Assembly: GCA_037140515.1 (NCBI GenBank)
Contig: JBAXEI010000002.1
Location: forward strand, 39,703-103,702
Reading direction: 5' to 3'
DNA from: Candidatus Berkelbacteria bacterium
Lineage (GTDB): Bacteria; Patescibacteriota; UBA1384; XYA2-FULL-43-10; 1-14-0-10-43-13
DNA: 64,000 nucleotides
Both the position numbers and the translations under genes were made by a program. Numbering within the stretch: the first letter of the stretch is position 1; every line of letters begins with the position of its first letter. Positions 3,600 through 59,810 of the stretch are shown here, one piece after another. The notes beneath the pieces were generated by a model. The model was not told the origin of the DNA. It saw only the letters and a program-made list of their open reading frames with translations, and did not search any database.

Positions 3600-5396
3600 A
3601 TGACAAAATTAATTAGATTTCTAAAGCCTTACATTTGGCAGATAGTGATTCTGCTGATTTTAACCTACTTGCAGGTTATGGCGACGTTGGCGCTACCCGA
3701 CTATATGGCGAAAATTATTAACAACGGTATTTCGGGCAAGGACATCGGTCTTGTCTGGCATGACGGCTTCTGGATGCTTGGCATCTCTTTGGCTGGCGCT
3801 GCTTGTGCAGTGGGAGCAGGCTATCTTGCCTCAAAGATTGCTACAGGCTTCTCACGCGATCTTCGCGAAAGCGTATTTTCGCGAATTGAAAGCTTCTCAC
3901 TTGTAGAGTTCAACAAATTCTCAACATCCTCTTTGATTACTCGTTCAACCAACGATATCCAACAGATTCAGATGGTGGTCATCATGCTTCTCCGTATGGT
4001 TCTGTCGGCTCCTATTATGGCAGTCGGCGCGGTATTCAAGGCGTATCATATGGCGCCCTCGATGAGCTGGATTATCGCTTTAGCTGTTGTTGTCATGTTT
4101 GGAATCATCGGAGTAATTTTCTCGATCGCGATGCCTAAGTTCGAGCTGTTACAAAAACTTGTCGACAAACTAAATCTTGTTACCCGTCAGAACCTAACCG
4201 GACTTCGTGTTGTTCGTGCCTTCAATAATGAAACGATTGAGGAAGAAAAATTTGATAAGGTGAACAAAGATCTTACAGATACAAATTTATTTGTGAATAG
4301 ACTGATGGTGATAATGCAGCCGCTTATGACTTTAATCTTTAACTTTACGACTATTGGCATCATCTGGTATGGGGCCAAGTTGATTGGCAACGGTACACTC
4401 CAGATTGGCGATATGCTCGCCTTTATGCAATATGCAATGCAGGTGATTATGTCATTCTTAATGATCTCGATTATCTTTATTATGGTGCCAAGAGCTTCTG
4501 TTTCTGGCAAACGAATTGCTGAAGTTATTGAGACTTTGCCACTAATAACAGACCCTAAGAATCCTGTTAAGGTAGATGGAAAAGGCATAGGGTTGGTTGA
4601 ATTTAAAGATGTGACTTTTTCATACCCTGGAGCCGAATCGCCAGTAATTTCAAATATTTCATTTACTGCAAAGCCTGGCGAAACCACAGCGTTTATTGGT
4701 AGCACTGGTAGCGGTAAATCGACAATCATAAATCTTATCCCTCGTTTTTATGATGTGACTTCGGGTAGCGTCTCAATCGACGGAGTAGATGTTCGAGACT
4801 TTAAGCTGGAAGACTTGTATCGAAAGATTGGCTATGTGCCACAAAGAAGCGTTTTGTTTTCGGGTACAATAAAAAGTAATATTACTTATGGCAATCAGAG
4901 CGCCACTGATTCGGAAATAGCTAAAGCTGTAAAAACTTCTCAAGCAGAAGACTTCATTGGCAAAACAGAAAAGAGTCTCGAAACCTCCATCGCTCAGGCT
5001 GGGGCAAACATCTCTGGCGGGCAGAAGCAACGCCTATCTATCGCACGCGCATTAGTTAAGAAGCCGGAGATTTACATATTTGACGATTCTTTCTCAGCAT
5101 TGGATCTGAAAACAGATTCTGCGTTGCGTAAGGCCCTAGAGAATGAGACGAAGGATAGGACCGTTTTGATCATTGGCCAACGAATAAGTACGATTATGAA
5201 TGCAGATAATATTATAGTTTTCGAGGGTGGGAAAATTTGCGGTCAAGGCCGGCATGAACAGTTGATCAAGAGTTGTGAAGTCTATCGTGAAATCGCCAGC
5301 TCACAACTTTCCGATGAAGAATTGAAAAATATTGGCTTATCTCTTCACGAGGTGGACAAGACGGTAATGGAGTTGACACAGAAGGAGAGTGTATGA
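3600..5396 (+). CDS. ABC transporter permease/ATPase fusion (type I exporter half-transporter, MdlA/YheI-like).
   Basis: Six N-terminal TM helices. Walker A GSTGSGKST, signature ISGGQKQRLSIARAL, Walker B IYIFDDSFSALD. Confidence 0.9.
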   Translation: MTKLIRFLKPYIWQIVILLILTYLQVMATLALPDYMAKIINNGISGKDIGLVWHDGFWMLGISLAGAACAVGAGYLASKIATGFSRDLRESVFSRIESFSLVEFNKFSTSSLITRSTNDIQQIQMVVIMLLRMVLSAPIMAVGAVFKAYHMAPSMSWIIALAVVVMFGIIGVIFSIAMPKFELLQKLVDKLNLVTRQNLTGLRVVRAFNNETIEEEKFDKVNKDLTDTNLFVNRLMVIMQPLMTLIFNFTTIGIIWYGAKLIGNGTLQIGDMLAFMQYAMQVIMSFLMISIIFIMVPRASVSGKRIAEVIETLPLITDPKNPVKVDGKGIGLVEFKDVTFSYPGAESPVISNISFTAKPGETTAFIGSTGSGKSTIINLIPRFYDVTSGSVSIDGVDVRDFKLEDLYRKIGYVPQRSVLFSGTIKSNITYGNQSATDSEIAKAVKTSQAEDFIGKTEKSLETSIAQAGANISGGQKQRLSIARALVKKPEIYIFDDSFSALDLKTDSALRKALENETKDRTVLIIGQRISTIMNADNIIVFEGGKICGQGRHEQLIKSCEVYREIASSQLSDEELKNIGLSLHEVDKTVMELTQKESV

Positions 5397-9292: not shown

Positions 9293-9344
9293 ATCATAGC
9301 AAATTATGTGGATAAAGTGTTCGACTTATGTTCGTATTAGCTTT

Positions 9345-10583
9345 ATGCTAGTAATCATGAGCATTACCACTGAGCCAAAAGATTACAGCGTTTTATTTCT
9401 CGATATGAATTCATTTTTTGCCTCTGTCGAGCAACAAGTCCAGCCCACCCTTCGTGGTCGGCCCATCGGCGTTGCGCCTTATATCGGCAGGACAGGCTGC
9501 ATCATTGCGGCATCATACGAAGCGAAGCAAATGGGCGTAAAAATCTGCCAAGTCGGCGAGGCGAAGAAGATTTGTCCACAAATCGCAATTATCGAAGCGC
9601 AGCCTTCTCTCTACATGATTTATCATAAAAAGATAAAGAAAGTGATCGAGAGTTTTACGCCATATTTTGAGGCAAAAAGCGTTGACGAATTTGCTATTCA
9701 TCTCACGCCGATGGACCAAAATCGTGAGAAAGCGACCGAACTGGCGCTCAAGATGAAGAAGGCGATTGCTGAAGAAGTTGGGGATTATCTCAAATGTTCC
9801 ATCGGGATTGCGCCATCTGTATTTCTCGCGAAAATGGCGAGCGAGTTGAAGAAACCAGACGGCCTAACAGTTCTCGAGCTGAAGGATTTGGACAATTTTT
9901 ACCATTCGCTCAAACTTCAAGATCTTACGGGCATAAATTGGCGGACAGAAGCCTCGTTGCAACGTTTCAAGATAAATTCACCAGCAGATTTCTATGGTAA
10001 ATCGCTCGAAGAGCTTGTCCGATTGCTCAAGCACATGGGGCGGCTTTGGTATTTTCGATTACGCGGCTATGAAGTCGATGATCACGTGGTGAAGAGTAAG
10101 ACGATCGGACATTCACACGTTTTGGCTCCAGAATTTCGTACGAAAGACGGGGCAACGGCAATTCTCCGTAAACTAATTTTCAAGGCTGGCTATCGTCTGC
10201 GCAAAGAAGGCTACTGTGCAGGTGGTATTTCTCTCATGATAAATTTTCTTGATGGCCAATCTTTTTCGGTCAGCCGTAGATTTTCAGTTTTTTCCGACAA
10301 TCAGAGTTTTTTGCAAAATACTTATGAACTTTTGAAGGATTGTCCGTGGCGTGGACGGCCTATTTTGGTCGCTGTTTCCTCGTTTGATTTGCAAAGAAAA
10401 ACTAGTGAGCAGATTTCTATATTTGCAGATCTAGAAAAATCAAAGAGCCTTTCCCTCGTTCTGGACAAGATAAACGATGAATTTGGGGCTGAGACAGTTT
10501 TCCCCGCCTCAATGCACACTGCCAAAGATTCGGCGCCCGATCGTATTCCTTTTGGGAAGCCGCGATATGATATTTTACACTGA
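9345..10583 (+). CDS. dinB: DNA polymerase IV (Y-family translesion polymerase). The start is ambiguous among 9306, 9345 and 9357.
   Basis: LFLDMNSFFASVEQ catalytic motif. Also GIAPSVFLAKMAS and the little-finger domain. The track ORF begins at 9306. Confidence 0.85.
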   Translation: MLVIMSITTEPKDYSVLFLDMNSFFASVEQQVQPTLRGRPIGVAPYIGRTGCIIAASYEAKQMGVKICQVGEAKKICPQIAIIEAQPSLYMIYHKKIKKVIESFTPYFEAKSVDEFAIHLTPMDQNREKATELALKMKKAIAEEVGDYLKCSIGIAPSVFLAKMASELKKPDGLTVLELKDLDNFYHSLKLQDLTGINWRTEASLQRFKINSPADFYGKSLEELVRLLKHMGRLWYFRLRGYEVDDHVVKSKTIGHSHVLAPEFRTKDGATAILRKLIFKAGYRLRKEGYCAGGISLMINFLDGQSFSVSRRFSVFSDNQSFLQNTYELLKDCPWRGRPILVAVSSFDLQRKTSEQISIFADLEKSKSLSLVLDKINDEFGAETVFPASMHTAKDSAPDRIPFGKPRYDILH

Positions 10584-10617: not shown

Positions 10618-10646
10618 TTGCGTAATACTTTGTGCTAGTTTATAAT
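10618..10646 (+). promoter_or_regulatory. Sigma70-like promoter upstream of the Gly-rich secreted protein gene.
   Basis: TTGCGT, 17-nt spacer, TATAAT. Lies about 70 nt upstream of the GTG start and its GAGGG RBS. Confidence 0.45.
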
Positions 10647-10716: not shown

Positions 10717-13371
10717 GTGGCAAAAATCTCCATCACAAAAGTACTTAGAGCGCGCAGGAAAGTAAGAATCCTGACGGTTTTGTTGTGTGCATTTGTTTTT
10801 GCTTTTGCTGTATGGAAGATTGTCATCAATAATCCCTTTGGGACCAAGGCGTCGGCCGGTTGCAATACTGTGGACGGGGTTACGACTTGTACAATTGATC
10901 AGCCCGGCAAATTGGCTCCGATGGGCAATGGCGAAGTTTTTTGTACTGGCGATCTTGCTTACGATTGGGCTGGTCAAAAAGCGACCAGCTGTACTACAGG
11001 CCAGCAAACGGTGATATCTTCTGGCGCTTCGGTCGTCATCGCAAACACAGCTGCTGTGACAACATATTTCACAAACACTTTGAAAAATCTTACTATTCAG
11101 AGCGGCGGGACTGTCACCCATGAGCCGTTGGCAGCAGCGGACACTTCAAACCAAATTTTTGGAAAAAAGGTAAGTATTATCGCGACTGATTATATCAGGG
11201 TTGAAGATGGGGCAAAGATAAATGCAGATGGAAAAGGCTATCCTGGAAATGCGACTATGGCCACTCATTCTGATGGCTATCCGACTTATGACACTGGTGG
11301 CGGGCACGGTGGACTTGGCTATCAAGCCACCAACAAGTTTGCTTGGGGTGGCGGTGGTAGTAGCAGTGTCTCGACAGGAGGCACAGCCTCGAGCTACACA
11401 TCTCCTAGCGCGACTACACCCACACAGTTCCCGTCTTTATCTGGCTCTACGCTTTTGCATGGCGCTTCTGGCGGTGTAGCTTGTATCGATACTACTGCTT
11501 GCTTCACAGGTGGTAATGGCGGAGGCTACATTCATTTAGAAGCCCCAAAAGTTCAAATATTCCCTACGGCGCAGATAACAGCAAGCGGAAGTGCTCCAAA
11601 CTATACACCTACACTTATCCCGGCTGGTGGTGGCGCCGGCGGAACGATAGAAATTGCAGGACAAGGCGCAAATGGGATTGTGTCTTACTGGCCTGATCTT
11701 GGTGATCCAGCGGCGACAATAGTTCCTGGTGGTCTCTCTGCAACTGCTGCAAATAGTGGTAACTCAGGCAAATTTACGAATTCGTTGTCCTTCGGCTTGC
11801 CGCTGAGCAATATTTTCGTAGGCAGCATGCTGAATTCTCTTGGCGGTGCCGCGGCTCTATCTAGCTGGACTGGACATATGCCAGCTGGCGGCGGCGGTGG
11901 AGCCGGGGGAAAAGTAACTCTTAGCGGTAAATATGTCCCACTTTGTGAAATAAATGTGGCATCTGTTAAGAACACTAGCGGCCATTATTACATTCCTGCT
12001 GGTTGCGAAGGTAGTGACGTAATAATAAATGGGGATATAACTGTATATGCTGATGATGCGAAAGTGCTTCAGAATGATTCACTGGATGCGCGGACGGCTT
12101 GTACGGATCCAGCGATAACAAACTGTGATAGTCACAGAAAGTTTCAATCGCTTACATTATCAAACAATGCAAAGCTGACACATAACGGCGTGACTATCCC
12201 AGAGATGATATCTGATGATTCAAATGTCAACAAATCGCTGGCTGATGAAGTTTACGGCACAGCTCGCTGGAAAAAGGTGGATATTGAAACTGCTGGAGAT
12301 TTGATAATCAAAGATACTTCTAATATCAATGTTACTGGCAAAGGATATCCTGGCGGGGTTTTTTGCAATGCTTCAGGAACTGGCGTTTGTAGTACTACTT
12401 TGAATGCGAAGGCTGGCTATGGACCTGGAGGATCGTTTGGCGGTCAGTGGCCTTGGGGAGCTGGAACAACGAATTGTGGCTATGGCGCGAGCTACGGAAG
12501 CCTTGGCTCTGCCATGAAAGATTGTTTGACGAATCTTGTTGATACGTCTGTAGCGAAATACGGTGATGCCGACTTAAATTTAGCTAATAAACTTGAATTT
12601 GGATCTGGTGGCGGTGGTTTGCAAGTTCCTGCTGGTACTAATTCAACTTTGACTGGTGGCTCTGGTGGAGGCAGAATCAAACTTTTGATTAGCGGCACTT
12701 TAAATTTGTCTCCGGTAAATAATCCTAATGTAATACTAGCCAATGGTGGAAATGGGGCTTGTTACGGCGCAACGTCTCCTTCATGTGGGGCTGGTGGATC
12801 TGGCGGCTCAATTCTGATCAAATCGAAGTTCTTTTCGATTCCGAATACTGGTGTAGCCTTAGGTATTGAAGCTGGCGCGCCAAAAATGACTACGGCAACA
12901 CCAGGCTCAGTGTCTAGCGATGTTTATCTTCCGATATTTTTTCAAGCAAAGGGAGGAGACGGAGGCCTGGGCGGCGCCTCGCAGGGTGGTGGCGGCGGAG
13001 CTGGGCGAATAATGGTGAAGAAGCTACTCTTGAGCTCGACGCCAACATTAAAGAAAACGTTGACTGCTCAGAAAAGGGGAGGGGTTTCAAATTCATCTTT
13101 CGATCCATATACATTGCAAAAAGATGATGAAATAGGAGTCTTAGTTGAAGTCTATGGTGTCGAGGAGCCACTTGTATTTCGTGACAGCTGGCTAAAGTCT
13201 TCAAACGGGAGCTGCCAATATGTAAGTAATAGTGGCGAGTTTAACCTCACTAGCTCCCCTTGGCCTGCTGGAAGTGATAACGCTGATGGCTATAGTCTGA
13301 GCCTAGACTCTGGAATGAAAGATGCAGGCACAGGTGCTATTTTGATATCATATCAGTGTAAAGTCCAATAA
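10717..13371 (+). CDS. Secreted/membrane-anchored Gly-rich repeat protein, predicted beta-helix-like surface protein (paralog A). Function unknown.
   Basis: GTG start. N-terminal TM ILTVLLCAFVFAFAVW. Recurrent GGGG/GGxGGx blocks and GGGRIxL motifs, GKGYPG motifs, and a conserved two-Cys block CTDPAITNCDSHRKFQSLTLSNNAKLTHN shared with the next gene. Confidence 0.75.
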   Translation: MAKISITKVLRARRKVRILTVLLCAFVFAFAVWKIVINNPFGTKASAGCNTVDGVTTCTIDQPGKLAPMGNGEVFCTGDLAYDWAGQKATSCTTGQQTVISSGASVVIANTAAVTTYFTNTLKNLTIQSGGTVTHEPLAAADTSNQIFGKKVSIIATDYIRVEDGAKINADGKGYPGNATMATHSDGYPTYDTGGGHGGLGYQATNKFAWGGGGSSSVSTGGTASSYTSPSATTPTQFPSLSGSTLLHGASGGVACIDTTACFTGGNGGGYIHLEAPKVQIFPTAQITASGSAPNYTPTLIPAGGGAGGTIEIAGQGANGIVSYWPDLGDPAATIVPGGLSATAANSGNSGKFTNSLSFGLPLSNIFVGSMLNSLGGAAALSSWTGHMPAGGGGGAGGKVTLSGKYVPLCEINVASVKNTSGHYYIPAGCEGSDVIINGDITVYADDAKVLQNDSLDARTACTDPAITNCDSHRKFQSLTLSNNAKLTHNGVTIPEMISDDSNVNKSLADEVYGTARWKKVDIETAGDLIIKDTSNINVTGKGYPGGVFCNASGTGVCSTTLNAKAGYGPGGSFGGQWPWGAGTTNCGYGASYGSLGSAMKDCLTNLVDTSVAKYGDADLNLANKLEFGSGGGGLQVPAGTNSTLTGGSGGGRIKLLISGTLNLSPVNNPNVILANGGNGACYGATSPSCGAGGSGGSILIKSKFFSIPNTGVALGIEAGAPKMTTATPGSVSSDVYLPIFFQAKGGDGGLGGASQGGGGGAGRIMVKKLLLSSTPTLKKTLTAQKRGGVSNSSFDPYTLQKDDEIGVLVEVYGVEEPLVFRDSWLKSSNGSCQYVSNSGEFNLTSSPWPAGSDNADGYSLSLDSGMKDAGTGAILISYQCKVQ

Positions 13372-13373
13372 AT

Positions 13374-15917
13374 ATGAAAAAAACTTCAATATTCAAAATT
13401 TTAGCAAAGAGAAAAATCGTTCTATCTAGTGCGATATTTCTCGGCTTGGCGGCTGCTGTCCTTTCGGGCACATTTATCTTCTATCGATATTTTCAGCCAG
13501 TGAAAGCTGCAAATTCTTGTGCAGCTAATGTTTTGACGGTGAATACTGGAGCGACCGCAAAGATCGTAGATAATTTTTTGACTGGCTCAATTACGCCTTG
13601 CGATAACACAAATGTTTCTGGCTATGATATTACAGTTAGCGGTACTGGAGTGAAGCTGATACTGGCTGGATATAATACTTTCAAAAATATTTCAGTTTTG
13701 TCTAATGCTACAATAACCCATGAGGCGCTGTCCTCTCTAGATATTGAAACAGACGGTGCGAGTTTGCTGCCTACTGGCGAGGCCAAAAAAGTTCAAATGG
13801 TTATTTCTGGAACATTAACGCTCGATACCGGTGGCAAAATCTCGGCTGATGGTCTTGGCTATCCTGGCGGCACCGCTACTCACACTGCTGGCTTTGGCTT
13901 TGGCGGCGGTCAGGCTACTCAGGCTGCACTAGCTTCTACTGTTATCTTGGCTTTTGGTCCTGGCGGAGGTGCTTTCGGTGGTGTCGGCGGTAGTGGATTC
14001 TCCAATCCATCTCTGACAGCTGCGACGGGTACGGCTTACCCAAACTACTATGATCCGTATATTTTTCGCGCTGGCTCGGGCTCAGGATACAATGCGGGGC
14101 ATATAAATACTCCGGTTCCTGTTGTCGGTTCAAGCGGTGGAGGAAGGATATATGTTCGGGCTGGTACAATAAACATCAAAAGTGGCACTATTTCAGCAAA
14201 AGGTAGCACAGGGCTTGCGCAGATACGAAAATATACTCTAAATGTTGTGAACAGATATTCTTTTACGGGGGGTGGCGCCGGAGGCACAATCTGGCTAGTC
14301 GCTGATACTATTGTTGCGCCAAAAGGGGCCACAGGAGTCACGCCCGATGTGTCTGGCGGTGCTATCGGAGGTGACTATCAGATCACAACAACAAATAGTG
14401 CAGATGATAAAGTTATTGCATCGGCTATTCATGACGGAACAAACGGTGTGAGTGAAATATTTGTGGATAGCCAGGAGAAATCGGATTTATACAAAAATTA
14501 TTTTGGTTATTTAAGTACTGCTGGTGGTTTGCCATCGTCAGCAACAGCAACATTGACAGGTTCTCTGAAAGGCACAGCAGCTGGCGGCGGTGGGGGTGGT
14601 AGGATCCGTGTAGAGGCAAAAGTTGTTCGTCCGTCTTGTACTATTATCTCCGGAACTACTATTCCTGACTATTGTGAAAACGGAGATGTGGTCGTTGGCA
14701 ATGGTCTCACAATCAATATGGATGCCGTAACAGTTTTGCAAGATTCCACACGCACTCTGTGTACTGATCCGACTATTTCAAACTGCGATAGTGCTAGACA
14801 TTTTAACAGCCTTACGCTTCAGGGGAACGCGAAGCTTACCCATAATCCAATTACTTCTGGCGATCTATTAGTTGGCGGTACACCTTATACCACACTTCAA
14901 GGTGACTCATTGATAAAAGGTGCCGCTCGTTGGCGAAAAGTAGACATCACAGTTGATGACTATATAAGTCTGGCAACCGGTAGCTCGATAGACGTGAGTG
15001 AAAAAGGCTATACCGGCTCTAACAATACATCGGCTGCACTTGGACGAGCCGCAGGAGCGACAAATACCAATCAGGGCGGTGGCTATGCCGGAAAAGGCGC
15101 GGGGAATTCTCTGGTTAGTTATCCACCGGATTTCCAGACAAAGGTGATCAGTGGTAATTTTGATTATACGTCGACTTATTTAGATAGCGGCAAAACCTAT
15201 CCACTATTTGACGCTGGTTCTGGGGCTGGAACTGCAAGTGCTGGAGGCGGTGGTAGGATTCACTTAAATGCAAAGAGCTTGACACTTGCTCCAGGGTCTT
15301 CGATCTCGGCAAATGGTACTGGCGTGGCAGCAAGTATGGCAGCTGGTGCTGGCGGCATGATTTGGATAGATTCTCAGAGCTATAGCTTTCCATCTGATCT
15401 TCCTGAGGCAGTTGTCACTGGTGGAACTGGCGCAAATGTTGGAGAAAACGGCTATATCTATACAGATATCTTCACACCAAATCTTATTTCAGCAAATGGC
15501 GGCAGCACGACAAACGGATTCAACGGTGGCGGTGGACGAATAATAATTCATCAGACTGTTGCGACTCAGAATCAGCCAATCATTACGAAGAGTGTGAAAG
15601 TTGTTGAACGACCAGGGATGACAGGTACAGCGGTGACAGACCTAAATCCTTATGCTCTTATCCTTGACGATGTGATTGAAGTGACTATTGCGGTTACAGG
15701 TCTGACACCAGGCACACCAAACACTACTATTGATGAAAATGTTTTGGCCGCGCCGACTGGCCAATATTGTTCGCCAATTTCTGCTACCGCTGCAACTCCG
15801 GCGAGTCCAAGTACAGCTCCTACAATCTCGACAGGCATAAAGCTTTTGACTTGGACATTTACGCCAACAAACACAAGCTCGTCTATGACATATAAATGCA
15901 GGGTGGTGAAGTCATGA
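13374..15917 (+). CDS. Secreted/membrane-anchored Gly-rich repeat protein, tandem paralog B of 10717..13371.
   Basis: N-terminal TM. Motifs collinear with paralog A: ITHEALSSLD, ADGLGYPGG, CTDPTISNCDSARHFNSLTLQGNAKLTHN, ARWRKVDIT and the GGGRI repeats. Lies 2 nt after paralog A. Confidence 0.75.
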   Translation: MKKTSIFKILAKRKIVLSSAIFLGLAAAVLSGTFIFYRYFQPVKAANSCAANVLTVNTGATAKIVDNFLTGSITPCDNTNVSGYDITVSGTGVKLILAGYNTFKNISVLSNATITHEALSSLDIETDGASLLPTGEAKKVQMVISGTLTLDTGGKISADGLGYPGGTATHTAGFGFGGGQATQAALASTVILAFGPGGGAFGGVGGSGFSNPSLTAATGTAYPNYYDPYIFRAGSGSGYNAGHINTPVPVVGSSGGGRIYVRAGTINIKSGTISAKGSTGLAQIRKYTLNVVNRYSFTGGGAGGTIWLVADTIVAPKGATGVTPDVSGGAIGGDYQITTTNSADDKVIASAIHDGTNGVSEIFVDSQEKSDLYKNYFGYLSTAGGLPSSATATLTGSLKGTAAGGGGGGRIRVEAKVVRPSCTIISGTTIPDYCENGDVVVGNGLTINMDAVTVLQDSTRTLCTDPTISNCDSARHFNSLTLQGNAKLTHNPITSGDLLVGGTPYTTLQGDSLIKGAARWRKVDITVDDYISLATGSSIDVSEKGYTGSNNTSAALGRAAGATNTNQGGGYAGKGAGNSLVSYPPDFQTKVISGNFDYTSTYLDSGKTYPLFDAGSGAGTASAGGGGRIHLNAKSLTLAPGSSISANGTGVAASMAAGAGGMIWIDSQSYSFPSDLPEAVVTGGTGANVGENGYIYTDIFTPNLISANGGSTTNGFNGGGGRIIIHQTVATQNQPIITKSVKVVERPGMTGTAVTDLNPYALILDDVIEVTIAVTGLTPGTPNTTIDENVLAAPTGQYCSPISATAATPASPSTAPTISTGIKLLTWTFTPTNTSSSMTYKCRVVKS

Positions 15918-16846
15918 AACTTTTCAAGCTAACATTTTTATTAGTTTTACTTACAGTAGTCTTGCAGCCTGGTATTATTCGAGCTGCAAACAATTCTTTA
16001 CCAGATGTTATGTTTGGCAGTACGAAGCTGACCCAAAACGGAAAAAATTATTTTGGCGGAGTGACAGGCAACTACGCAGTTCTAAACAATTCCTCATCTC
16101 CAGATTTTGGTTTTCGCAATGATCAGAAGTGTGTGAAAAGCGATGGTACGCTGGTGATTCAGTCGATCACGTCGCCAAAATGCTTTGTCCTGACTAGTTC
16201 AAACTCAGCTGTAAACTTGCTTACGAGTCGCTCCTTTATTCGTATCGGTACTAACGACGAGCAGGCGATTTATGAGTTGCCGGCGCTATATTTTAGCAAG
16301 AGCACTATCGCTGGCGATGTATTTGGCAATATTGATTATAGTAAATTTTCTTTCTGGGGAAATAACACTTCTACTTCTGGTGATTCAGCTTGGACGACCA
16401 GTGGCTATGCGATGAATCCAAAATCACAATCTTCATGGCTAGACTCTAGCGGCAGCGGGACGACGGCGTACAACAGCTACTATGCCAAGATCAGGGCGAT
16501 GGCAGACAACGGGAAAGTTTTTTCGCCTGCTGATACTACATATTTAAACTCGAGCACTGACATTCATATTTATTTGCAGAGCAAAGACATTGCTAGTAGT
16601 TCTTCGGCAAATGACGAAACGAATCTTTATCCTGAAGGAAAGACGTGGATTGTTGATGCTACTTCTTATAACCCTACTACTAATGGTGATCTGAGCATTA
16701 GTAATACTTCTGGCAAAAGAAAAATTACATATCATGGCATTGGAACTATACTCGTAAAAGGAAACGTAGACGTTGCGGCAAACGTAGAAATCATGCCTGC
16801 AACTGATAAGGACAAGCTAGGAATTATCTCTATCGCAGGTGACTAA
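15914..16846 (+). CDS. Secreted protein of unknown function with an N-terminal signal peptide.
   Basis: MKLFKLTFLLVLLTVVLQPGIIRAANN looks like a cleavable signal peptide. S/T/N-rich. Overlaps the end of paralog B. The ORF track starts at 15896. Confidence 0.6.
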   Translation: MKLFKLTFLLVLLTVVLQPGIIRAANNSLPDVMFGSTKLTQNGKNYFGGVTGNYAVLNNSSSPDFGFRNDQKCVKSDGTLVIQSITSPKCFVLTSSNSAVNLLTSRSFIRIGTNDEQAIYELPALYFSKSTIAGDVFGNIDYSKFSFWGNNTSTSGDSAWTTSGYAMNPKSQSSWLDSSGSGTTAYNSYYAKIRAMADNGKVFSPADTTYLNSSTDIHIYLQSKDIASSSSANDETNLYPEGKTWIVDATSYNPTTNGDLSISNTSGKRKITYHGIGTILVKGNVDVAANVEIMPATDKDKLGIISIAGD

Positions 16847-16933: not shown

Positions 16934-16963
16934 TTGGTATTCTCGCATAAATTGGTCTATAAT
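16934..16963 (+). promoter_or_regulatory. Candidate promoter for the giant gene.
   Basis: TTGGTA, 18-nt spacer, TATAAT. A GGGGAGGG RBS sits at about 17000, ahead of the ATG at 17013. Confidence 0.3.
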
Positions 16964-17012: not shown

Positions 17013-20000
17013 ATGCGAAAATTTAGCCCCATGAAAAGTCTCCAACAAATGCTTGGAGATATATCTAGTCGTACAAATGCGGCTCATTTTTTGCGCTCAA
17101 ATATCCACGAGAAAAAGCTAAATGGTGGAGTTAGCTTTCAAAAAGTTGTCTTAGTCACATTTGTTCTTGCAGCAGCTCTAATCTGCGGATTTTTGTACAA
17201 TAATCAACCACAAAAAGCGTATGCTGCAAATTGTCGGTGGACCGGTTCGGTAGGGAACGCAGACTGGATGACTGCGGGAAACTGGACAAGTTGCGCTAGT
17301 TTGGTTCCTCAATCAGGTGATTCAATAACCTTCGACTCTAGCGGTACACAGGTCGTAAATCTTAACAGCTCTACTTCTATTGCGAATTTGACCATCGCAA
17401 ATACATTTGCAGGCACTATCACAGTTGGCGGAGGCTATACTTTGACAGTGTCTACAAACTATCGTCAATATGCAGGAACTTTCAATGCTCCGGCTGCTGG
17501 GTCAATAAGGGTTGGCAACCAGTTTATGAATGACCAAGGCGTGTTTAACGCTAGTACCAGTCTTGTAGATCTCTATAATGTTACAAACGCAGGTTCTGCT
17601 GGTTTCTGGGGTAATACTACTTTTTACGACCTAAGCATCACGTCACCAACAGCAACCCCAGTTTTGTTCGAGCAGACTAGGACTCAAACAGTTCTTCATA
17701 ACTTTGTTGCGAAAGGTACTTCAAGCCAAAATCTTATTTTGACCAGAAATGCAGGCTCAAATTGGATCCTTGACCTAAAAGGAACGTATTCTATGGAATA
17801 CGTCTCAGTCAGCTATTCCACAAGCTTGAGAGCAGGATATCTAAATCCACCAAACTCTTTCAACGGACCTAGCAATACAGGCTGGTTTCCGCCGATCAAT
17901 GTATCTGGCTCATGCAGCTCGACTTCAGCTGAGACAGTTTATCTTGTTGTTAACGGCACTTTAAATACCCAATTTGCAACGACTGCTGGTGGTGCACCAT
18001 GCACATACACAATTTCTGGGGTATATAGACCAAATAAGGGAGATGTTATCCAGACTTTTGTGAACAAGATTGGCGCATCGGATCCGACTGATGCACAAAA
18101 AGCAGTTGCAGTTATGAAATACAATACGGCCGGCAATGATGTGACGGGCTTGGACTTGAGAGAAAAGACACTATCTATCGGTACTCTTGATTCACAGGTG
18201 GTTACATACTCAGACCTCAAAATGTACGACTATGTCAATACGACTACTCGTAAGAACATTCTATATGATTGCACTGACGCTTATGGACCTAATAATTTTT
18301 TCAATCTCATGTCCAAAGCCTCTGGTTACTCGCAACAGCTGACAGTCTATATCCCAAATGGTGGCACTTATTCGGGACAGACTAGCGGCTACCGGGTAGT
18401 CACGGAAACTGATTATCTTCAGATTGCCACTGGTGGGACGTACCTAGGCGCCAATGACTCGACGATGGATCTGAAAGCTACTGGCACGCCATTTACCAAA
18501 AGTGGTACTTTTGACCCAGGTACATCTAACTTCATCTACTCTGCTGCCGTTACAGTGACAGCAGCTACTTACTATGATCTTACACTTCTTGGTACTGGCT
18601 CAGACACTGTTCTCGCTGCCGGGACGTTGACTGCTCTGCGTAATTTCACTATCGGAAATGGTACAGCAACGACTGTCGTTCGAGCAAATACGAATAATCC
18701 GATAATCAATATTGGCGATTCGCTTGCTCGACCAACATTTCTGATTAGTAATGCTAGTACCTTCTACGCCTCACCCTCTGCTGTGATGAATGTTTACGGT
18801 AGCTTCACAGCGCACGGAACCTTTACGCACAACAACGGCACAGTAAATATTTTCTTGTCGACTGGCGATCACGGCCATATCACGGCTGATAATGCTCCTG
18901 TTTCGAAATTTTATAACCTAAACATTACTCGTGGAGCGACCGCTACTGTAGCTTACAAGATTTATTTTGATACTAACTTTACTGTCGATGGCAATCTTAC
19001 GATGAGAAACGATACAGATGTCAGACTTTATATTGAGAGCAAAACAGCTTCTATCGGCACTATCTCAGTGACAGGTGATATCATTTTCCCAGCAACACCA
19101 GCGAACACTGGTGGTATCTCTATCGGGGATAATATTTCTAGAGATTCTAATGGTAATCCTATATACGCTTCTTGGCCTTCAATTGATTTCAAAGGCAATT
19201 TCCGTCAATTGGATACAGATGTAAACCCAGGAGGATCAAGTATAGTGATCGCTGGTTATTTGACTGCATCGGGTTCCACCAATCAGCACTTTGAGCGTGC
19301 TCGGAGCACTTACAATGCTGGCACCGCATACCAACCGAGCTTTCTTTCTGGTGATCTGTCTTCGGTAACCTGGAAGATAAATAAACCCGTTGCAGGCACA
19401 TTTGTCATTCCGGACTCTGACTTTGTCTTCGATAATGTGGTGTGTGACGCAAACTATGATGCAGAGTTTCAGAAAAATGGTACAAACACTATTGCCTTGA
19501 ATAATTTTAATTACGGAAGTGATTGCAACTTTACCCAACCAAATGACGCAGACATGTTCTTGCTTTTTGGCAATTTCACTATGAATGCGGCTGGCAAAAC
19601 TTTCTCCATCAACCCTACTTTCAAGACACAATTTGGCTATCTGCTAAGCAAGTTTTTCTATGTTTCGGACTTTGTGAATGACGAAACTTGGTCAAAGGGT
19701 GACGTTGTCATAAACAATGGTACTCTTACTTTTCCGACAGCTTACGCTACTAAGATGCGCAGCCTGACTATGAATGCTGGAAATTTCAACGCTCCAGGAG
19801 GTACGGGAGAACTGATAATGTACTCGAACTTTACAATTGGTGCTGGCGCAACTTTCCATAATAATTTGGGTAAAGTTAAATTTTTGACTGACTATATTGG
19901 CAGCTACATTACTGTGGCCAACTCTGCGGCGAGCACGTTCTACACTCTAGACTTTGGCAGAACACTGACAACCAAAAGAATTGATTATACAGGTAACTGG

Positions 20001-23000
20001 GCTGGCGGCATAGAAATAAGGAGTGCCCTAGTCGTTGATAGCAACTTTCAAATATACAATAGCAGTGAAAGCCCACTAAACATTTCTAAGATTAATTCAG
20101 CCGACGCTCTCCCTGTGACAATAAATGGCAACTTCACACTTCTTCATACGGATGAGACGGGTGCAATAGGAATTGGCAATTCTAATGTACCAGCTACTTT
20201 TCCAACGTTTGATTTGAATAGAGATTTTTCATACGAAGAAAATACCGACACAGCAGGGGACGCGAAAGTCTATCTTTGTATGAAGTTCATCGTTTCTGGT
20301 ACTGTCGATCAGCATTTTACACGACTTAGAACTTTATATCCTTATGGGGTTACTCCTGACTATTTGGCCGGATATTTTGTTAACGTAACTTGGCAATTTA
20401 GAATGGGCGCTGGCGCCCATGTCATCGCCGATACAGACTTCATATTCAACGGCGTGGTTTGCGATGCCAATTATCGTGCAGAATTTTTGAAAAAAAATAG
20501 CAATAAGATTGCTCTGACAAATTTTCAGTATAACAACGGTTGTAACTTTATTCAGCCACTCGACGCAGTCGATAGCTTCCTTTGGTTCGGCGATTTCACG
20601 ATGAACGCTAATTCGACTTTCACAATCAATCCGCTGTTTAAGACCCAGTTTGGATTTATGCGTAGTAAATTCGGGATCAGTTTTGTGGGTAACCAAACTT
20701 ATCCTGAGCGTTGGTCGGGAGACAGTCTGCCATATTACTTCGACACAGGCACAAACGGTAATATTACTGTAAATAATGGCACTCTGGAGTTTCCGACTGG
20801 CTATGTAACAACGGCTGGTGGCGTGACGATAAACGGGGGAGTGCTGAAGGCTCCTGGAGGTGCAGGAAACCTGAGCGTCCACTACAATTTCGTACAGACT
20901 GGCGGTAGCTTTGTTCACCAAAATGGTTTGGTTACTTTGCTTGCTGATTATGCGAACAATACAGTATCTTCGATCAATAATTTATTGACGTTTTACAAGC
21001 TAGATATTACGAAGTATCTTGGCGATACATTCAGTATCTTACTAAAAAGTAATATTCAGACCGATAGCGATCTGACTTTTGGCAACAGGATGACGAGTTT
21101 AATTAACTATCCTCTAAATCACCTAATTTTTCGTAGTGAATCAAGCCTCAATCCTACAGTTACCGTAAAAGGAAATTTCATACTTCCTGACTACGGGAAT
21201 AGAAATTGTTCTACTTTTGGTGCAACAACATATCCAAATCAACTCAATGTCGATTTGTGGGGCGACCTGTCAGCGCCAGCGACGAACGCAGTTGTACTAG
21301 ACGCGAACTTCCACTTTGTGGGTGATCGTGAGCAGCAAATTGATGTAAACGCTCACCTGGAGAACGATGATACTTGGAAGGGTGTTTGGCTAAGCAATGG
21401 TAAATGGGAAATAAATAAGAGCTCTGCGTCCGGAAAAGTATCTCTAGCAAAAAACTTTATTGCGTCTAGCGTACATGGCATTATTGATAATAATAACGGT
21501 CACCCTCTGTATATGGATGTTAAGAAGGGTGTTCTTGACATGAACGGTAAGAATTTCGTTTTGCTCGGCCGGACAAATGATTTCATAGACGGTAGCGGCG
21601 GATTTGCAAACTTGGTTGATGTTACGCTTTCGGCGCAGGATGCAGGGACAATCAGGCTCCTGGGGACCGAACAAACCCCTAGGTTTGTTGTCCTCTCTAG
21701 ATTCTCAACTGTTGAATACTATGATCAGAATGCAAATGGTAGAGAGATAAAGAAATGGAACTATGGGAATCTCAAGATAAACGCGGTAAACGGCGTGACA
21801 AAGGGAAAGTACTCTTTGCCAGCCTCTCTCGTGGGCTATTGGAAGATGGATGAAAGTAGTTGGTCGGGCATAGGAAGTGTTAAAGATTCGACAATTCTGG
21901 CCAATAACGGAACCGCAGCCAATGGTGCCGCGCCGGTGACGGGCAAATATGGGAATTCCGGTAGTTTCAATTATAGTATGAATAGTCTGGTAGACGCTGG
22001 CTCGATACCAAATGTTGATTTGACAAATGAAGTGACTGTATCAACGTGGGTAAACTTTGACAGCTTTCCCTGTGACCAAGCCCAGGGCTTTTTCTCAAAG
22101 GATCATGATCTGACGCTATATGCTACTTGCAGGAGCTATAATGCAGTCACTAATTTCCCACCACGTTATAGTTTCGTGTTCTCGACACCTGGCGGTCTAG
22201 TTGGTTCACAGTTTGCTGCGCCAGTGACCGGTAATTGGTATCATGTTGTCGGTGTATATAAGCAATATGAATACATGAAGATATACGTAAACGGGGTTCT
22301 CTCTAGCACTACGCCTATTACAACCAAACGGTCTGAAACAGCTAGTAATTTTCGGATTGGTAGAGGCTACAGTGAGCGAGTCGATTGTGTTGGCTTCGGA
22401 AGTGCTAGTTGCGATAGCTGGAATAATGTAGATACTCTTAGTGGACGACTTGATGAGGCAAGGCTTTATTCTGTTGCTCTGACTGATCAGCAAATTGCTA
22501 ATTTGTATAATAATAATGATGCTGGTCCCTTACCTGGTACTAATATTCAAAACGATGTCTCGATTGTGGCCGGTACCCTTGACGGACAGGGTCGTGAAGC
22601 AAGCGTCGGTGGCAACTGGACCAACCAAGATACTTTCTTGTCGAAGGACGGCAAGGTAACCTTCACGTCTGCAGATAAGACAGACTTCGTGAATTCGATT
22701 GGTACGACTATTCCGGCTATCAAGCTACTTAATAACAACAATCAGCAGTGGGGAAGTGTTGGGTTCGACAGTGGTATTTCTGATGGTGGCCAGTGGAAGT
22801 TTGTGGATACGAACAATCATATAATCCTGCAAAACAATCTATATGTTGCAAATGGCAATGTTGCGACCGATGCAGCCGATCTAGATAATAAGCAGATGAC
22901 GGTCATGGGTGATGTTGTCCTGACTGGTGGCAAGCTGACGGCTCGTGGCTCTGTGATAAATGTCGGGGGTAATTGGTCAAACACGGGCGGCACTGGAGTT

Positions 23001-26000
23001 CTCGCATATGGTACGTCTACGGTGAAGTTTACGAAGGCTGATGGGCCACAAAATATTTCAGGCAACACTACTTTTTATAATCTGACAAAGCAAGTTTCGA
23101 CAGAGCAGCATTGGATATTTGCAAAAGATTCTGTTACTTCCGTCATGGGCAAGTGGACGGCAACTGGTACGCAAAACAATATTTTGTTTGTCGAGAAAGA
23201 CGGCGTTGCAAACAACGGTGATCATTGGAAAATCTGGCTAAATAACGTATCTTCTGGCAAGGATTTGCAGTGGCTTGCGGTACGTGATTCAAACAACATT
23301 TCAGTTCAAGAGATAAATGTTGCAGCTGATAAAGTATATGATCTTGGAAACAATATTCGCTGGATTTTTGGAGGTATTGATATATCCGGATCATGCAACC
23401 TCTATGATGAAGCTGTTACGACTTTTTGTGCTCCTGGCGCGAATATAGTTTCGGTGGCTGTAAATGATGAGATCCAGCCGATGAAAGGCAGTATCGCAGC
23501 TGATGGAACCTGGAGCGTCAGCGGTATCCTTGGTAAAGCGGCGGGTGCGACGATAACTGTTTATCTAGATGGTGTGGCAATAGAGAAACGTGCAAATCTA
23601 GTTGCTGTTTCGAACGCTACTAATATCATCAACGCTAAATTATTCGAAAATCATCTCACTATCGGAGCTGAGGGTAGCGCAATGATCAATAATGGTAATT
23701 TGGCACTGTTTGGCCACTCTATAGCGGCTGATGATGACATAATTTTCGATATAAATGTCTCAAGTAAAAAACTGACTCTTCTAAATACAGGAAAAGTTCT
23801 TCGAGACGAAGTCTTGTATGTTGGGGGGAACAATAGTTCTTTGTATCAGCCGAAATTTGGAACGATGACTGGTGATCTGATCACAGCGCCTAGCGTTCAT
23901 ATCGGGCCAAGTGCAAAGATGGATCTTTCAAATTGTACAGATATTGATGCATGTAAAATAAATGTTGATGGCGGAAACTGGAGAAACGATCTGACTGGTT
24001 CGTTTGCAGCTGGCTCTTCAACTGTCAATTTCTCTGGCACTGCAAATGATCAGGAGATAAAGACAGGTAATGCTGCCTCAAAATTCGATAAATCGGTAAT
24101 CAATGGCACGATTCAGACAAATAGCTGGGTTTCTCCTGACATAAATCCTTATCAATACCAAAAAGAGATTACGATCAACGGGCCATACTCAGCTGGCGGA
24201 AGTCCTAGTGCAACTCTTTCAAATGGCTTGGTCGCTGAGTACAAGATGAATGAAGCCTCTTGGACGACAAATGGCCCAGTTCTAGACTCGACAACAAATG
24301 GTGCAAACGGCATAAATACACGAGCAAATACAACAGATACTGGCAAATTTGGGCGAGGTGGTGATTTCAACGCCACGAATACAAGCTATGTTGCTTTGCC
24401 TGCTGCCGTAACTTCTGGCTTGAATAAGTTTACGATCTCGATGTGGGTAAACGAAACACAAGCTGGACCAGTTAACGATGACAGGACCCTGATTGGCAAT
24501 TTTAGCACCAGTAATGAAGGTTCTCTTCGTGTGACAAGTAGGGGCGGACGATTGGGAATGCTGGCCTCAAAAATGAATTCGAGCTACCTCAATACAGCTA
24601 ATACTTTTGATGGCACAGGCGTCTCCAGCACGGGGACATATAGCATTTCAAATAATAAGTGGAACCATGTTGTTGTGGTTGCTGATGGTATGCAGATATC
24701 TCTATATGCAAACAGTGAAGCTGACGGAAAAATGATACATCTCGGGTCAAGTCCAGCAGACAGAGGATTGACTGCTCTGTCAATGTACTTGGGCGCACAA
24801 AATTATAACAATTCTATTCCAGCAGCTTCTTACTACACCGGAAAAATTGATGATGTTAGGATTTACAATCGAGCACTCTCTGATGCGGAGATTGGGATAT
24901 TGGATCAGGCCTCGGAGGATAATTCTTTCGACGTAAATAAACTTAATCTTGTGGATTACAAGGCAGTTCTCGACGATGGCGAAGTTGCTCGTTACGATTT
25001 TGAAGACCAAGCAAATGTAGGTAAGGATGTTTCGGGAAATAGCAATAATGGAGTACCTACTGGAGATATTACTGCTTTTGGCAAATTTGGAAATGGTTTG
25101 AAGTTCACCGCAGATGGTCAGAATTTAAGCTTGGGCAAACCATCGATACCTGGCCCTGGAAGCGAATTTTCGGTTAGTACCTGGTTTTACCAAAGCGCAT
25201 ATGCCTTCAGCTCTCAATATCTTGTATCTCAGACCGACTCAGCTGGTTCGGGCTTCTCGATCTTTACCGGTGTCGCTGATACCTCGGGCAATTACGATGA
25301 CATTCTTGTTGGTGACGCTACAAATGATGCAACGGTATGGAAGGTCCCTGTCCTCTTCTCGGTCGGATCTGGCGCCTGGCACCATGTTGTAGTTGTCTCA
25401 AAGAAAAATGGAGCAGATCTATACTTCGACGGCATCTTGAAAGCCTCCAAGACTTCAGCTCTCTCATATGGAAATAACTCAGATAGCCTGGTCCTTGGCA
25501 AGAAAAATTTGACTGTATCTGGTGGTGACCTCAAGGGTGGGCTTGATGAATTCAGAATATATGATCGCTTGCTCACTTCGAGCGACGTTTCAACCTTGCA
25601 CACTAGCAACACAACTTCTGACTGGGCAAATTTCTATACACATGCATTAGAAACTGGACAAGATATTATATTTACTGCGAGTGACAAGACTACTCTCTTA
25701 CCATTTTACCGTGATAAATTCACAGCAAGTGGCCAAAATTCTCGCTTTGTTGTGAAAGTCCCGAGTGTCCCTGCAAATAGCTCAACGAATATCTATGCGT
25801 ACTATGGTAACACACACTCAGACAGGAGCGATGCAAGTTTGATCACTTCTGCTCTTCCTGCACCAAAAGGTGCATGGTCGCTTGATGAGGGAGTCGGAAC
25901 TACAGCAAAAGATGCTACCGCGAATGCTAATAATTGTTCTGTTGTTGCTCCGCCTGACTCTTGGACCGGTAGCGGCAAATCTGGCGCTGCGCTGGTTGGC

Positions 26001-59803: not shown

Positions 59804-59810
59804 GGAGGGC

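Follow-up and report, generated by a model that had tools for sequence, protein, structure and literature searches.

A type IV pilus operon of a Candidatus Berkelbacteria-type bacterium begins with two unannotated, fast-evolving protein families

Introduction

PilY1 and MshQ are large, Sec-exported non-pilin adhesins of Gram-negative type IV pili (T4P) that are encoded in T4P clusters, carry LamG, DUF2341 and propeller-type content and are thought to sit at the pilus tip with minor pilins. LamG-type modules are reportedly found on adhesive minor pilins of T4P. TcpF and CofJ are cargo proteins of Gram-negative type IVb pili, whose machinery acts on them as a T2SS-like exporter. The tapirins are beta-helix cellulose-binding proteins encoded beside a T4P locus (10.1101/359786). 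Those of Caldicellulosiruptor (Calkro_0844 and Calkro_0845, with consecutive locus tags and characterised together; PDB 4wa0 and 6n2c) are exported non-pilins with a beta-helix core from a bacterium without an outer membrane. T4P are among the few machines enriched across CPR bacteria, which lack both an outer membrane and PilQ (PMC6744442).

Here, a 64,000-nt stretch of DNA (the window) from a Candidatus Berkelbacteria-type CPR bacterium was analysed, in which three genes, A, B and C, precede a gene for a 4017-aa protein (the giant gene) and a set of pil genes. A and B resemble the tapirins in gene position next to a T4P locus, since they stand at the 5' end of the pil operon both here and in about 14 related loci. 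Unlike them, they are Gly-rich, consist of two modules, bear a conserved N-terminal signal and have a partner protein, C. A profile of A searched against PDB (E≤1) detected no homology to the N- or C-terminal tapirin domains. The LamG, DUF2341 and propeller-like parts of the giant are the kind of content associated with MshQ and PilY1, but neither the PilY1/PilC domain nor an MshQ model matched it in Pfam and NCBIfam, and A, B and C, unlike PilY1 and MshQ, have no propeller. The attachment through a split DUF7305 domain proposed below is not described for PilY1. The locus also resembles a system in Omnitrophota (10.1101/2023.11.21.568195), where ultra-small or predatory bacteria encode giant exported adhesion-domain proteins next to a pilus or secretion apparatus; that phylum, its domains and its machinery (which has GspD) are different, and the study describes no small partner linked to the giants through a split domain.

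Results

A, B and C are the first genes of a type IV pilus operon

A check of the open reading frames placed A, B, C and the giant gene on the + strand, in agreement with an earlier sequence-only reading of this DNA. The genes of the locus are as follows.

10717 to 13371, + strand: gene A, 884 aa, GTG start behind GAGGGG
13374 to 15917, + strand: gene B, 847 aa, tandem paralogue after a 2-nt gap, with a two-module plan like that of A
15914 to 16846, + strand: gene C, 310 aa, Sec-type signal peptide, truncated ("short") member of DUF7305 type
17013 to 29066, + strand: giant gene, 4017 aa
29142 to 29822, + strand: PilN-like protein, 37% identical to its L003 counterpart; homologues have weak Pfam PilN matches
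29806 to 30336, + strand: PilO (Pfam)
30348 to 30620, + strand: small ORF for a 90-aa protein with a single transmembrane segment; counterparts in L003 and L015-L020
30711 to 39707, + strand: PilB (MshEN+T2SSE), PilT, PilC, pilin, prepilin peptidase PilD and four minor pilins (Pfam)

The 2-nt gap between A and B, the ATGA overlap of B and C and the pil genes downstream of the giant gene on the same strand (PilN, PilO, PilB, PilT, PilC, pilin, PilD and minor pilins) show that A, B and C are the first three, translationally coupled genes of a T4P operon. The sequence-only reading had taken them for a dedicated surface module; a free-standing unit was not borne out, and it is the pil linkage that is conserved. 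No PilM domain was found by Pfam in the window or in the related loci with precomputed Pfam annotation. A 316-aa signal-peptide protein had been proposed after B; the corresponding frame (15896 to 16846) exists and its product is exported, but translation likely starts at the ATG at 15914, which overlaps the B stop and yields a 310-aa protein with an identical database entry (P0238).

Promoter-like elements were found at two positions.

10618 to 10646, + strand: TTGCGT-17-TATAAT upstream of A, read directly from the sequence
16934 to 16963, + strand: TTGGTA-18-TATAAT within the 166 nt that separate C from the giant gene, 10 of 12 matches, a consensus match only

The -35 element upstream of A has only three of six consensus matches and fell below the threshold of the consensus scan, which therefore did not list it. 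Nevertheless, TTGC-17-TATAAT is conserved upstream of the orthologues in L001 and L017, and partly in L015, as is the Shine-Dalgarno sequence GGCGAGGGG, although the proteins are only ~30-57% identical. The conservation of both elements despite this divergence supports the promoter noted in the sequence-only reading.

Gene order is conserved while A, B, C and the giant diverge rapidly

The order of one or two A-family genes, a C-family gene with or without a tail-bearing protein (see below), PilN, PilO, a ~90-aa protein, PilB, PilT and PilC was found in L003/4, L005, L006, L007, L009, L011 and L015-L020. About 14 loci, which belong to Saccharibacteria, Berkelbacteria and unclassified Patescibacteria, share the core order of A-family, C-family, PilN and PilO; the co-location in relatives on which the sequence-only reading depended was thus confirmed, with A-type and C-type genes adjoining each other. 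L012 is the only pil-linked locus whose operon does not open with the A-family gene. A was duplicated independently in L018 and L011, its copy number varies, and family members contain one or two modules.

Against the closest relative, L001, flanking genes of the window showed 69-95% identity, whereas A (57%), B (52%), C (50%) and the giant (~41%) evolve fast, in the manner of surface proteins. The giant gene occurs only in the window and in L001; elsewhere its place is taken by proteins of 482-734 aa or by nothing, and it is lineage-specific cargo.

In a library clustered at 50% identity, a profile of the A family matched 991 representatives at E≤0.001, of which 158 at E≤1e-30. Some of the weaker matches are to Gly-rich modules of giant proteins from other phyla, and A-type modules stand in tandem in giant proteins of Fibrobacteraceae and Holophagales. 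All core A- and C-family members with a source name are labelled hypothetical. The family of A and B is unannotated and abundant in metagenomes.

A and B are paralogues with two Gly-rich, putatively beta-helical modules

A and B are 30% identical over 601 aa (BLASTP with composition correction, E=1e-36), which bears out the paralogy seen in the sequence-only reading. The reported richness in Gly, Thr, Ala and Ser was likewise recovered (A: G 15.8, A 9.6, T 9.3, S 9.8%; B: G 14.4, T 12.2, A 10.2, S 9.3%), with four GGGG blocks in A and three in B. Most of the shared motifs also held: A has ADGKGYPG and B ADGLGYPG, GGGRI occurs once in A (besides one GGGYI) and four times in B, and both carry a two-Cys block with the consensus CTDPxI(T/S)NCDSxRxFxSLTL...AKLTHN. 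The claimed (T/I)THEPL was not exact, as A has VTHEPL, and the limits of the two-Cys blocks are close to, but not the same as, those first given (12108-12200 and 14759-14850).

12100 to 12186, + strand: two-Cys block of A (CTDPAITNCDSHRKFQSLTLSNNAKLTHN), at the start of module 2
14760 to 14846, + strand: two-Cys block of B (CTDPTISNCDSARHFNSLTLQGNAKLTHN)

Residues C470, R474, F476, S478, L479, L487 and H489 of this block are invariant in the A-family alignment (A2). Both proteins follow one plan: an N-terminal export signal that is conserved, a pair of Gly-rich modules with a putative beta-helix fold, and a small beta domain at the C-terminus. In A, these are a signal or anchor (residues 1-45), module 1 (~48-403), module 2 (~418-770) and a beta-sandwich-like domain of ~110 aa (771-884) ending in YxCxVQ; the modules of B span 1-421 and 421-845. 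Invariant polar residues of the family are T134, H135, D142, K150, K151, Y175 and H184 in module 1 and H489, R517, K520, D522 and Y544 in module 2. The AF2 model of A was of moderate confidence (pTM 0.60, pLDDT 63.8), and the Foldseek comparison with PDB, a check proposed for the beta-helix fold, gave no significant match.

The absence of a recognisable family held up as well, since no characterised family was matched in Pfam, NCBIfam or PDB profile searches. Scans of A, B and C with Pfam and NCBIfam found only a sub-threshold match of B to AgmC_N, 40 family members had no Pfam match, and a PDB profile search with A returned no chain at E≤1 except a chance match to an unrelated copper protein. 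The AgmC match (the N-terminal domain of a Myxococcus gliding protein) was rejected, as it reached 22 bits (E=6.5e-5) against an NCBIfam NF047640 cutoff of 275 and lies in a Gly-rich stretch; A did not match this model. PE-PGRS identity was rejected for want of any defining feature. TpsA or autotransporter passengers (EtpA, HMW1, FHA, Pet, IgA1 protease) were also discarded: no TPS or autotransporter Pfam match was found at E≤1, Foldseek matches were not significant, and such passengers need an outer-membrane TpsB or beta-barrel translocator, whereas CPR bacteria have no outer membrane. Type IV pilin or pseudopilin identity was dismissed for A, B, C and the giant, none of which matched N_methyl (class III signal peptide, G/FTLxE), a domain matched by six true pilins in the window. 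PilN carries an INLLP-type PilM-binding motif at its N-terminus, which the MAKISI start of A resembles only loosely; A and B had no Pfam PilN match, and a separate PilN-like gene lies at 29142.

The A family has a conserved putative export signal

A, B, C and the giant have a single hydrophobic segment apiece, located at the N-terminus, in agreement with the membrane or signal segments assigned earlier to A, B and C. The segment of A is distinctive.

10717 to 10851, + strand: conserved putative export signal of A, made up of MAKISIxKVLxxRRKxRxLT, a hydrophobic helix of ~20 aa and NPxxxKA with invariant Ala45

It is the best-conserved part of the A family (0.59 versus 0.29-0.52 elsewhere), and a MAKISI-type start was present in 68 of 152 representatives. 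Ala occupies -1 at the fixed position 45, -3 carries a small or aliphatic residue, and a helix is predicted at 6-38 in the AF2 model of A. The motif MAKISIxxVLxxRRKxR was seen only in this family, apart from a loose resemblance in the N-terminus of the giant. Conserved-motif signal peptides of Gram-positive surface proteins include YSIRK-G/S and KxYKxGKxW. Like the signal of A, they belong to large surface proteins and place a long conserved n-region ahead of a hydrophobic core and cleavage site of the ordinary kind, but their motifs differ. The strong conservation of the A N-terminus could also mean a membrane-anchored role in the machine, contrary to an adhesin or adaptor role.

A DUF7305 domain appears to be divided between C and the giant

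Pfam DUF7305 (PF23981), an uncharacterised domain on which a literature search found no paper, was matched by all eight long or fused C-family members (E≤0.1, best 5e-9); the L006 protein scored 35.5 bits and P0249 26.3 bits, against a gathering score of 27 bits. C from the window gave no Pfam match by itself. It lacks the C-terminal ~85 residues of the domain, as the long members run on past ...KLGIIS (alignment A4), and the missing part corresponds to the end of the giant.

28791 to 29063, + strand: tail of the giant, residues 3927-4017, the C-terminal part of the DUF7305 domain absent from C

This tail is 39-43% identical to the tails of long C members (BLASTP, E=6e-14 to 2e-16), matches a tail profile HMM at 1e-43 and takes up the C-terminal half of the DUF7305 match. 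By sequence, the domain of the window thus appears to be divided, with its N-terminal part in C and its C-terminal part in the giant. Outside the tail, BLASTP found no similarity of C, A or B to the body of the giant. The single module of A, B, C and the giant proposed earlier is therefore upheld in so far as C and the giant share one split domain, but the giant is kept only in the closest relative.

Wherever C is tail-less (the window, L007, L015, L016 and L019), a signal-peptide protein with the tail at its C-terminus is encoded next (five of five testable loci), and C proteins that keep the tail had no tail-bearing partner (L003/4, L005, L009, L017 and L018). LamG was inserted inside C in L006, L011 and L020. 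In L008, a MAG, a single 1104-aa protein combines two A-type modules with a C-type DUF7305 region (Cfam E=4.5e-9); its gene lies among housekeeping genes with no adjacent pil genes, so A- and C-type proteins can exist without an adjacent T4P locus. The fusion itself speaks for a link between A and C; its location counts against a pilus-associated adhesin or adaptor. A PDB search with a profile of long C returned antibody chains only, and the AF2 model of C was poor (pLDDT 49.7).

The giant has an N-terminal hydrophobic anchor, four LamG_3 stretches, DUF2341 and a propeller-like Vgb_lyase/NHL region at 3432-3632 (Pfam). A partial NCBIfam match to TafC, a subunit of the haloarchaeal Tat-fimbria, was found (2.4e-25) and, being partial, is treated as domain-level similarity only. 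The PilY1/Neisseria_PilC propeller domain had no Pfam match in A, B, C or the giant.

Discussion

In the reading that we favour, at about an even chance, A, B and C, with the giant, form a fast-evolving non-pilin adhesin and adaptor set associated with the pilus and functionally like tapirins or PilY1/MshQ. After Sec export, C would serve as an adaptor, and its incomplete beta-rich domain may be completed by non-covalent binding of the giant's tail. Other lineages would draw the tail from a smaller variable protein or from C itself. Interchangeable adhesin cargo would thereby be mounted on a constant base. A and B may be rigid beta-helical stalk or adhesin subunits acting with C, and the whole set would be made together with the pilus and serve pilus-dependent attachment to a host or substrate. 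Because the models of A and C are moderate and poor, the proposed completion of C draws on gene architecture rather than on structure.

A different role, which we hold to be unlikely, would make A and B, perhaps with C, structural parts of the pilus machine, held in the membrane by the N-terminal helix and spanning the envelope beside PilN and PilO to guide the pilus through a wall without a secretin. The constant position of the A-family gene directly before C-PilN-PilO and the absence of PilQ from CPR bacteria (PMC6744442) fit this role. So do the first 20 residues of A, near-invariant in 68 representatives, which is unusual for a mere signal peptide; this cytoplasmic peptide might contact a cytoplasmic partner where no pilM is adjacent, whereas the Southlakia T4P1 locus starts with PilM-PilN-PilO. 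However, PilM could be encoded elsewhere in the genome, and the signal-peptidase-type (-3,-1) site at position 45 suggests that the N-terminus is cleaved off. The much faster divergence of A, B and C than of flanking genes, the variable module and copy numbers, the tandem use of the same module in giant surface proteins of other phyla and the L008 fusion away from any pil genes also speak against a machine part. An independent adhesin or S-layer-like module, lying beside the pilus genes by chance, seems quite improbable. All four proteins are exported and rich in Gly, Thr and Ser, the set has its own conserved promoter, and the L008 fusion is not beside pil genes; yet about 14 loci, representing at least two CPR lineages, keep the adjacency to PilN-PilO-PilB while the proteins diverged to ~27-30% identity, and the giant gene is not conserved. 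The S-layer part of the sequence-only reading failed, as no SLH or other S-layer anchoring or lattice domain was matched in Pfam or NCBIfam and a position inside pil genes is atypical for S-layer genes.

An enzymatic role is very improbable for A and B; they would then be, for instance, beta-helical depolymerases of polysaccharides or cell walls, resembling phage tailspikes or pectate lyases in fold, and would open the host's or the cell's own envelope for the pilus or for feeding. The invariant polar residues of each module would suit a catalytic role, and the Omnitrophota giant proteins beside T2SS/T4P-like loci have been linked to cell-wall degradation (10.1101/2023.11.21.568195), but these residues are located where each module begins and may serve to cap or stabilise the helix, and no catalytic Pfam or NCBIfam family and no PDB sequence was matched. 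We give least credence to the four proteins being cargo comparable to TcpF or CofJ, which the T4P machinery would secrete or present by working like a T2SS exporter: they are non-pilins with Sec signals co-encoded with a complete T4P/T2SS-type machine, but CPR bacteria have no outer membrane to cross (PMC6744442).

The adhesin and adaptor reading can be extended, with considerable reservation, to an unrecognised plug-in system on the essential T4P of Berkelbacteria- and Saccharibacteria-type CPR bacteria. Here, the incomplete DUF7305 adaptor C would receive tail-tagged, interchangeable adhesins of 480 to more than 4000 residues, and the A family, with its putative beta-helix and dedicated conserved export signal, would provide a stalk or envelope-spanning support. 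If so, adhesins would be docked in a new way, through complementation of a split domain, and the proteins would make up a new class of accessory factors of T4P. Published lists of CPR pilus components (PilB, T, C, M, N, O, D and pilins) include neither the A nor the C family. As two unannotated, fast-evolving families heading a pilus operon, they are testable candidates for the host-recognition apparatus. Furthermore, the recurrent rule that a truncated C is followed by a variable protein bearing the tail suggests a route by which adhesin specificity may be exchanged between lineages.

A tandem Gly-rich gene pair opens a type IV pilus locus

The four open reading frames described in the sequence-only reading were reproduced at their positions, all on the forward strand. 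They encode the tandem Gly-rich paralogues A and B, the truncated DUF7305-type secreted protein C and a giant LamG/propeller protein, and are followed by type IV pilus (T4P) genes:

10717-13371, + strand, gene A, 884 aa, GTG start with GAGGGG just upstream
13374-15917, + strand, gene B, 847 aa
15896-16846, + strand, gene C as a 316-aa ORF
17013-29066, + strand, giant gene, 4017 aa
29142-39707, full T4P gene set from PilN-like to four minor pilins, including PilD
41554-42168, extra orphan pilin gene, behind TrpRS/TyrRS-type and RNase H genes

The order 3' of the giant gene was PilN-like, PilO, a 90-aa single-TM gene, PilB (MshEN+T2SSE), PilT, PilC, pilin, prepilin peptidase and the four minor pilins. 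The start of C is probably the ATG at 15914, which forms an ATGA overlap with the TGA of B and gives a 310-aa product, identical to a protein present in public data. The TTGCGT-17-TATAAT element described upstream of A was located at 10618-10646, with a weak -35 part. It is probably a promoter, because TTGC-17-TATAAT and the Shine-Dalgarno sequence GGCGAGGGG were kept upstream of orthologues with a protein identity of only ~30-57%. Non-ATG starts were frequent in A-family genes (GTG at 10717 in the window; TTG at about 10058 in L001, the closest relative of the window, and at 7375 in the related locus L017), and the strongly conserved GGCGAGGGG preceded these starts.

Related loci from other genomes (L001-L020) were annotated with BLAST, custom HMMs and precomputed Pfam calls. 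About 14 of them, from Saccharibacteria, Berkelbacteria and unclassified Patescibacteria, shared a common order of (DinB), one or two A-family genes, a C-family gene, PilN, PilO, a ~90-aa gene, PilB, PilT, PilC and onwards, with identities falling to 27-30% for A and about 32% for C. The earlier proposal of a surface module together with the giant gene thus stood in part: the A-C adjacency was kept, but the pilus context had been missed and the giant gene occurred only in the window and L001 among the loci compared. Searches for PilM in the window and the related syntenic loci gave none, nor did the window yield a secretin; by contrast, in Southlakia, a cultivated Saccharibacterium, the T4P1 locus opens with PilM-PilN-PilO.

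The DinB/Pol IV (IMS) gene lies directly upstream of A (9306-10583) for no obvious functional reason, an adjacency conserved across lineages and present in most of the related loci (L001, L009, L011 and L015-L020); in L003/L004, DinB is reduced to a 112-aa fragment. PilB (30711-33185, 824 aa) carries a long, acidic, low-complexity Ser/Thr/Glu-rich insert at about residues 270-420, between the MshEN and ATPase domains, and is encoded by two ORFs split near the insert point in L006 (425+511 aa) and L011 (411+516 aa). Elsewhere, the gene at 42186-43952 unusually joins a Memo-like domain to a CapA-like PGA_cap domain (poly-gamma-glutamate capsule synthesis); 3' of it come a membrane-anchored protein of 571 aa that belongs to no known family, and then FtsW/RodA. 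A second exported-protein cluster (58673-62072) encodes proteins of 376 aa (no known family), 304 aa (collagen-triple-helix-repeat) and 395 aa (DUF11/DUF7619). All ORFs with a family assignment in the window (1-64000) were on the + strand and the cumulative GC skew climbed almost monotonically across the 64 kb, indicating extreme gene co-orientation on one replichore.

The A family is large and built from a repeated Gly-rich module

A and B proved to be paralogues, with 30% identity across 601 residues (E=1e-36, BLASTP with compositional adjustment), and their Gly/Ala/Thr/Ser richness was evident (Gly 15.8% in A and 14.4% in B). The two-Cys block occurred in both (12100-12186 in A, 14760-14846 in B), as did the quoted motifs, with the single slip that A has VTHEPL. 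A, B, C and the giant protein all carried exactly one hydrophobic segment, at the N-terminus. A single-module profile built from ~500-aa relatives matched A twice (residues 1-403 and 418-884) and B twice as well; direct BLAST of the N-half against the C-half (E=1e-5) supported an internal duplication. At the head of each module stands a conserved stretch, (Cys-block)-LTH(E/N)-...-KKVDI-...-(D/S)GKGYPG, followed by Gly-rich rungs (GGGRIxL / GGGAGG(T/S)I), and the protein ends in a beta domain of ~110 residues that contains a conserved pair of Cys. An AlphaFold2 model of A, from an alignment of 7 sequences, showed an N-terminal helix (6-38) and confident beta segments (pLDDT 63.8, pTM 0.60). Foldseek of A against the PDB gave no significant match, and searches of Pfam, NCBIfam and PDB sequences gave no family for A-type proteins. 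The description as beta-helix-like proteins of no known family was therefore upheld, with moderate structural confidence.

A word-indexed search retrieved only 6 relatives. A full HMMER search with the family profile gave far more, with 991 representatives passing E<=0.001 and 158 of them reaching E<=1e-30. One-module forms of ~500 aa were frequent among the matches listed, and the named members, which came from MAGs of Patescibacteria, Berkelbacteria or Saccharibacteria, were all labelled 'hypothetical protein'; near-identical copies of A (MEI7792047.1) and C (MEI7792049.1) came from a Candidatus Berkelbacteria MAG, which places the window. In remoter matches, the A-type module was repeated within giant proteins of other phyla. 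Giant proteins of one Fibrobacteraceae MAG (L014 2567-20020; 5817 aa, with the module at least 9 times in tandem) and one Holophagales MAG (L013 2996-19407) contained it, showing that it is not restricted to CPR, the group including Berkelbacteria and Saccharibacteria.

Conservation within the family was highest over residues 1-45, which consist of MAKISIxKVLxxRRKxRxLT, a hydrophobic core and NPxxxKA; this motif opens 68 of the 152 representatives. Ala is fixed at position 45, and position -3 is small or aliphatic, a pattern that fits cleavage by signal peptidase I. The N-terminus may be a cleavable signal of a specialised kind, comparable to the signal peptides with conserved motifs that occur on Gram-positive surface proteins, or it may be a retained anchor carrying a functional cytoplasmic peptide. 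The giant protein and B are loosely similar at their N-termini (MRKFSPMKSL and MKKTSIFKIL, respectively).

C and the giant protein share one split domain

Alignment of C with 13 relatives separated two classes: short forms of ~310 aa ending in ...KLGIIS(I)xx, and long forms of 367-421 aa continuing as ...C.F.G...I.AM.FC....F.YDY...PPGF.YLN.P...EVGN. All eight of the forms checked against Pfam, long or fused, matched DUF7305. The long-form extension proved homologous to the C-terminal ~90 residues of the giant protein (3927-4017, the tail; 39-43% identity, E=6e-14 to 2e-16). With C-core and tail HMMs run across all loci, the short C of five loci (window, L007, L015, L016 and L019) was in every case followed by a separate signal-peptide protein ending in the tail (4017, 482, 732, 734 and 537 aa, respectively). 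L001 also had a short C, and its giant extends past the end of the locus examined. Long forms (L003/L004, L005, L009, L017 and L018) lacked a tail-bearing partner, and L006, L011 and L020 each encoded one protein with LamG domains inserted within C. Recurrence with different partners ruled out an assembly artefact as the source of the split.

These patterns suggest that the C domain is completed in trans by the tail, which would make C a constant adaptor on which variable adhesin-like cargo docks; the content of this cargo includes LamG, InlB-B-repeat-like (Flg_new_2), propeller and DUF2341 elements. The AlphaFold2 model of C was poor. In NCBIfam, four stretches of the giant protein partially matched TafC, a haloarchaeal subunit of Tat-dependent fimbriae (E=2.4e-25, far below the cutoff), probably reflecting a common adhesin-type domain. 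The LamG-C fusion of L011 also matched TafC weakly. L015 (5190-5891) and L016 (7955-8656) each encode an additional membrane protein between the short C and the tail protein; it is 233 aa long and highly basic, with a weak DUF5667 match.

A and C are linked and diverge rapidly

In the window, A/B and C adjoin and are translationally coupled, and the two families were neighbours in all pil-linked loci but one: in L012 an A-like gene lies 3' of the pilins and a gene of C type was not detected. In L008 (9734-13048), two A-type modules and a DUF7305 region of C type (C-family profile, E=4.5e-9) are fused in a single 1104-aa protein; its gene lies in housekeeping surroundings, between DHH-family (nrnA-like) and PNPase genes, and is distant from any pil gene. 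Gene fusion is usually a sign of proteins working together, and would mark A and C as such partners.

Protein identity between the window and L001 was 95% for the MFS transporter, 93% for DinB, 87% for the sensor kinase, 69-71% for two ABC transporters, 57% for A, 52% for B, 50% for C and ~41% for the giant protein. These low values for A, B, C and the giant, and repeated independent duplication of A (L018, L011), would fit surface-exposed recognition proteins. In L001 a MazE-type antitoxin gene (2537-2803) separates the sensor kinase from the first ABC transporter; the matching gap in the window (3181-3600) holds no ORF of at least 120 aa.

Possible roles in the CPR pilus

In the likeliest reading, to which we give roughly even chances, A/B, C and the tail-bearing cargo form a non-pilin extracellular accessory or adhesin set of the CPR pilus. 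They would be functionally comparable to PilY1/MshQ-type adhesins and to tapirins, beta-helix proteins adjoining the Caldicellulosiruptor T4P locus (10.1101/359786). Membership of the tapirin, TpsA/autotransporter, pilin and PilY1 families was rejected by sequence.

The conserved place of A beside PilN and PilO would also suit an envelope-spanning part of the pilus machine, which appears unlikely given a module that recurs within giant proteins of other phyla. A surface or S-layer module unrelated to the pilus is less probable again: the L008 fusion does lie apart from pil genes, the ~14 syntenic loci do not, and the S-layer-like identity suggested earlier failed, as the proteins are not members of S-layer families by sequence. 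There is a slim chance that the predicted beta-helix belongs to an enzyme, and the slimmest is that these proteins are cargo secreted in a T4P-dependent manner.

The A and C families were absent from the CPR T4P components in PMC6744442, PMC10633639, PMC11623550 and PMC11880426, and a literature search found no mention of DUF7305. Non-pilin adhesins encoded with T4P are already known as a general kind; the A family, the C family and the split-domain rule, by which a pilus-linked adaptor may receive variable cargo, appear to be undescribed.
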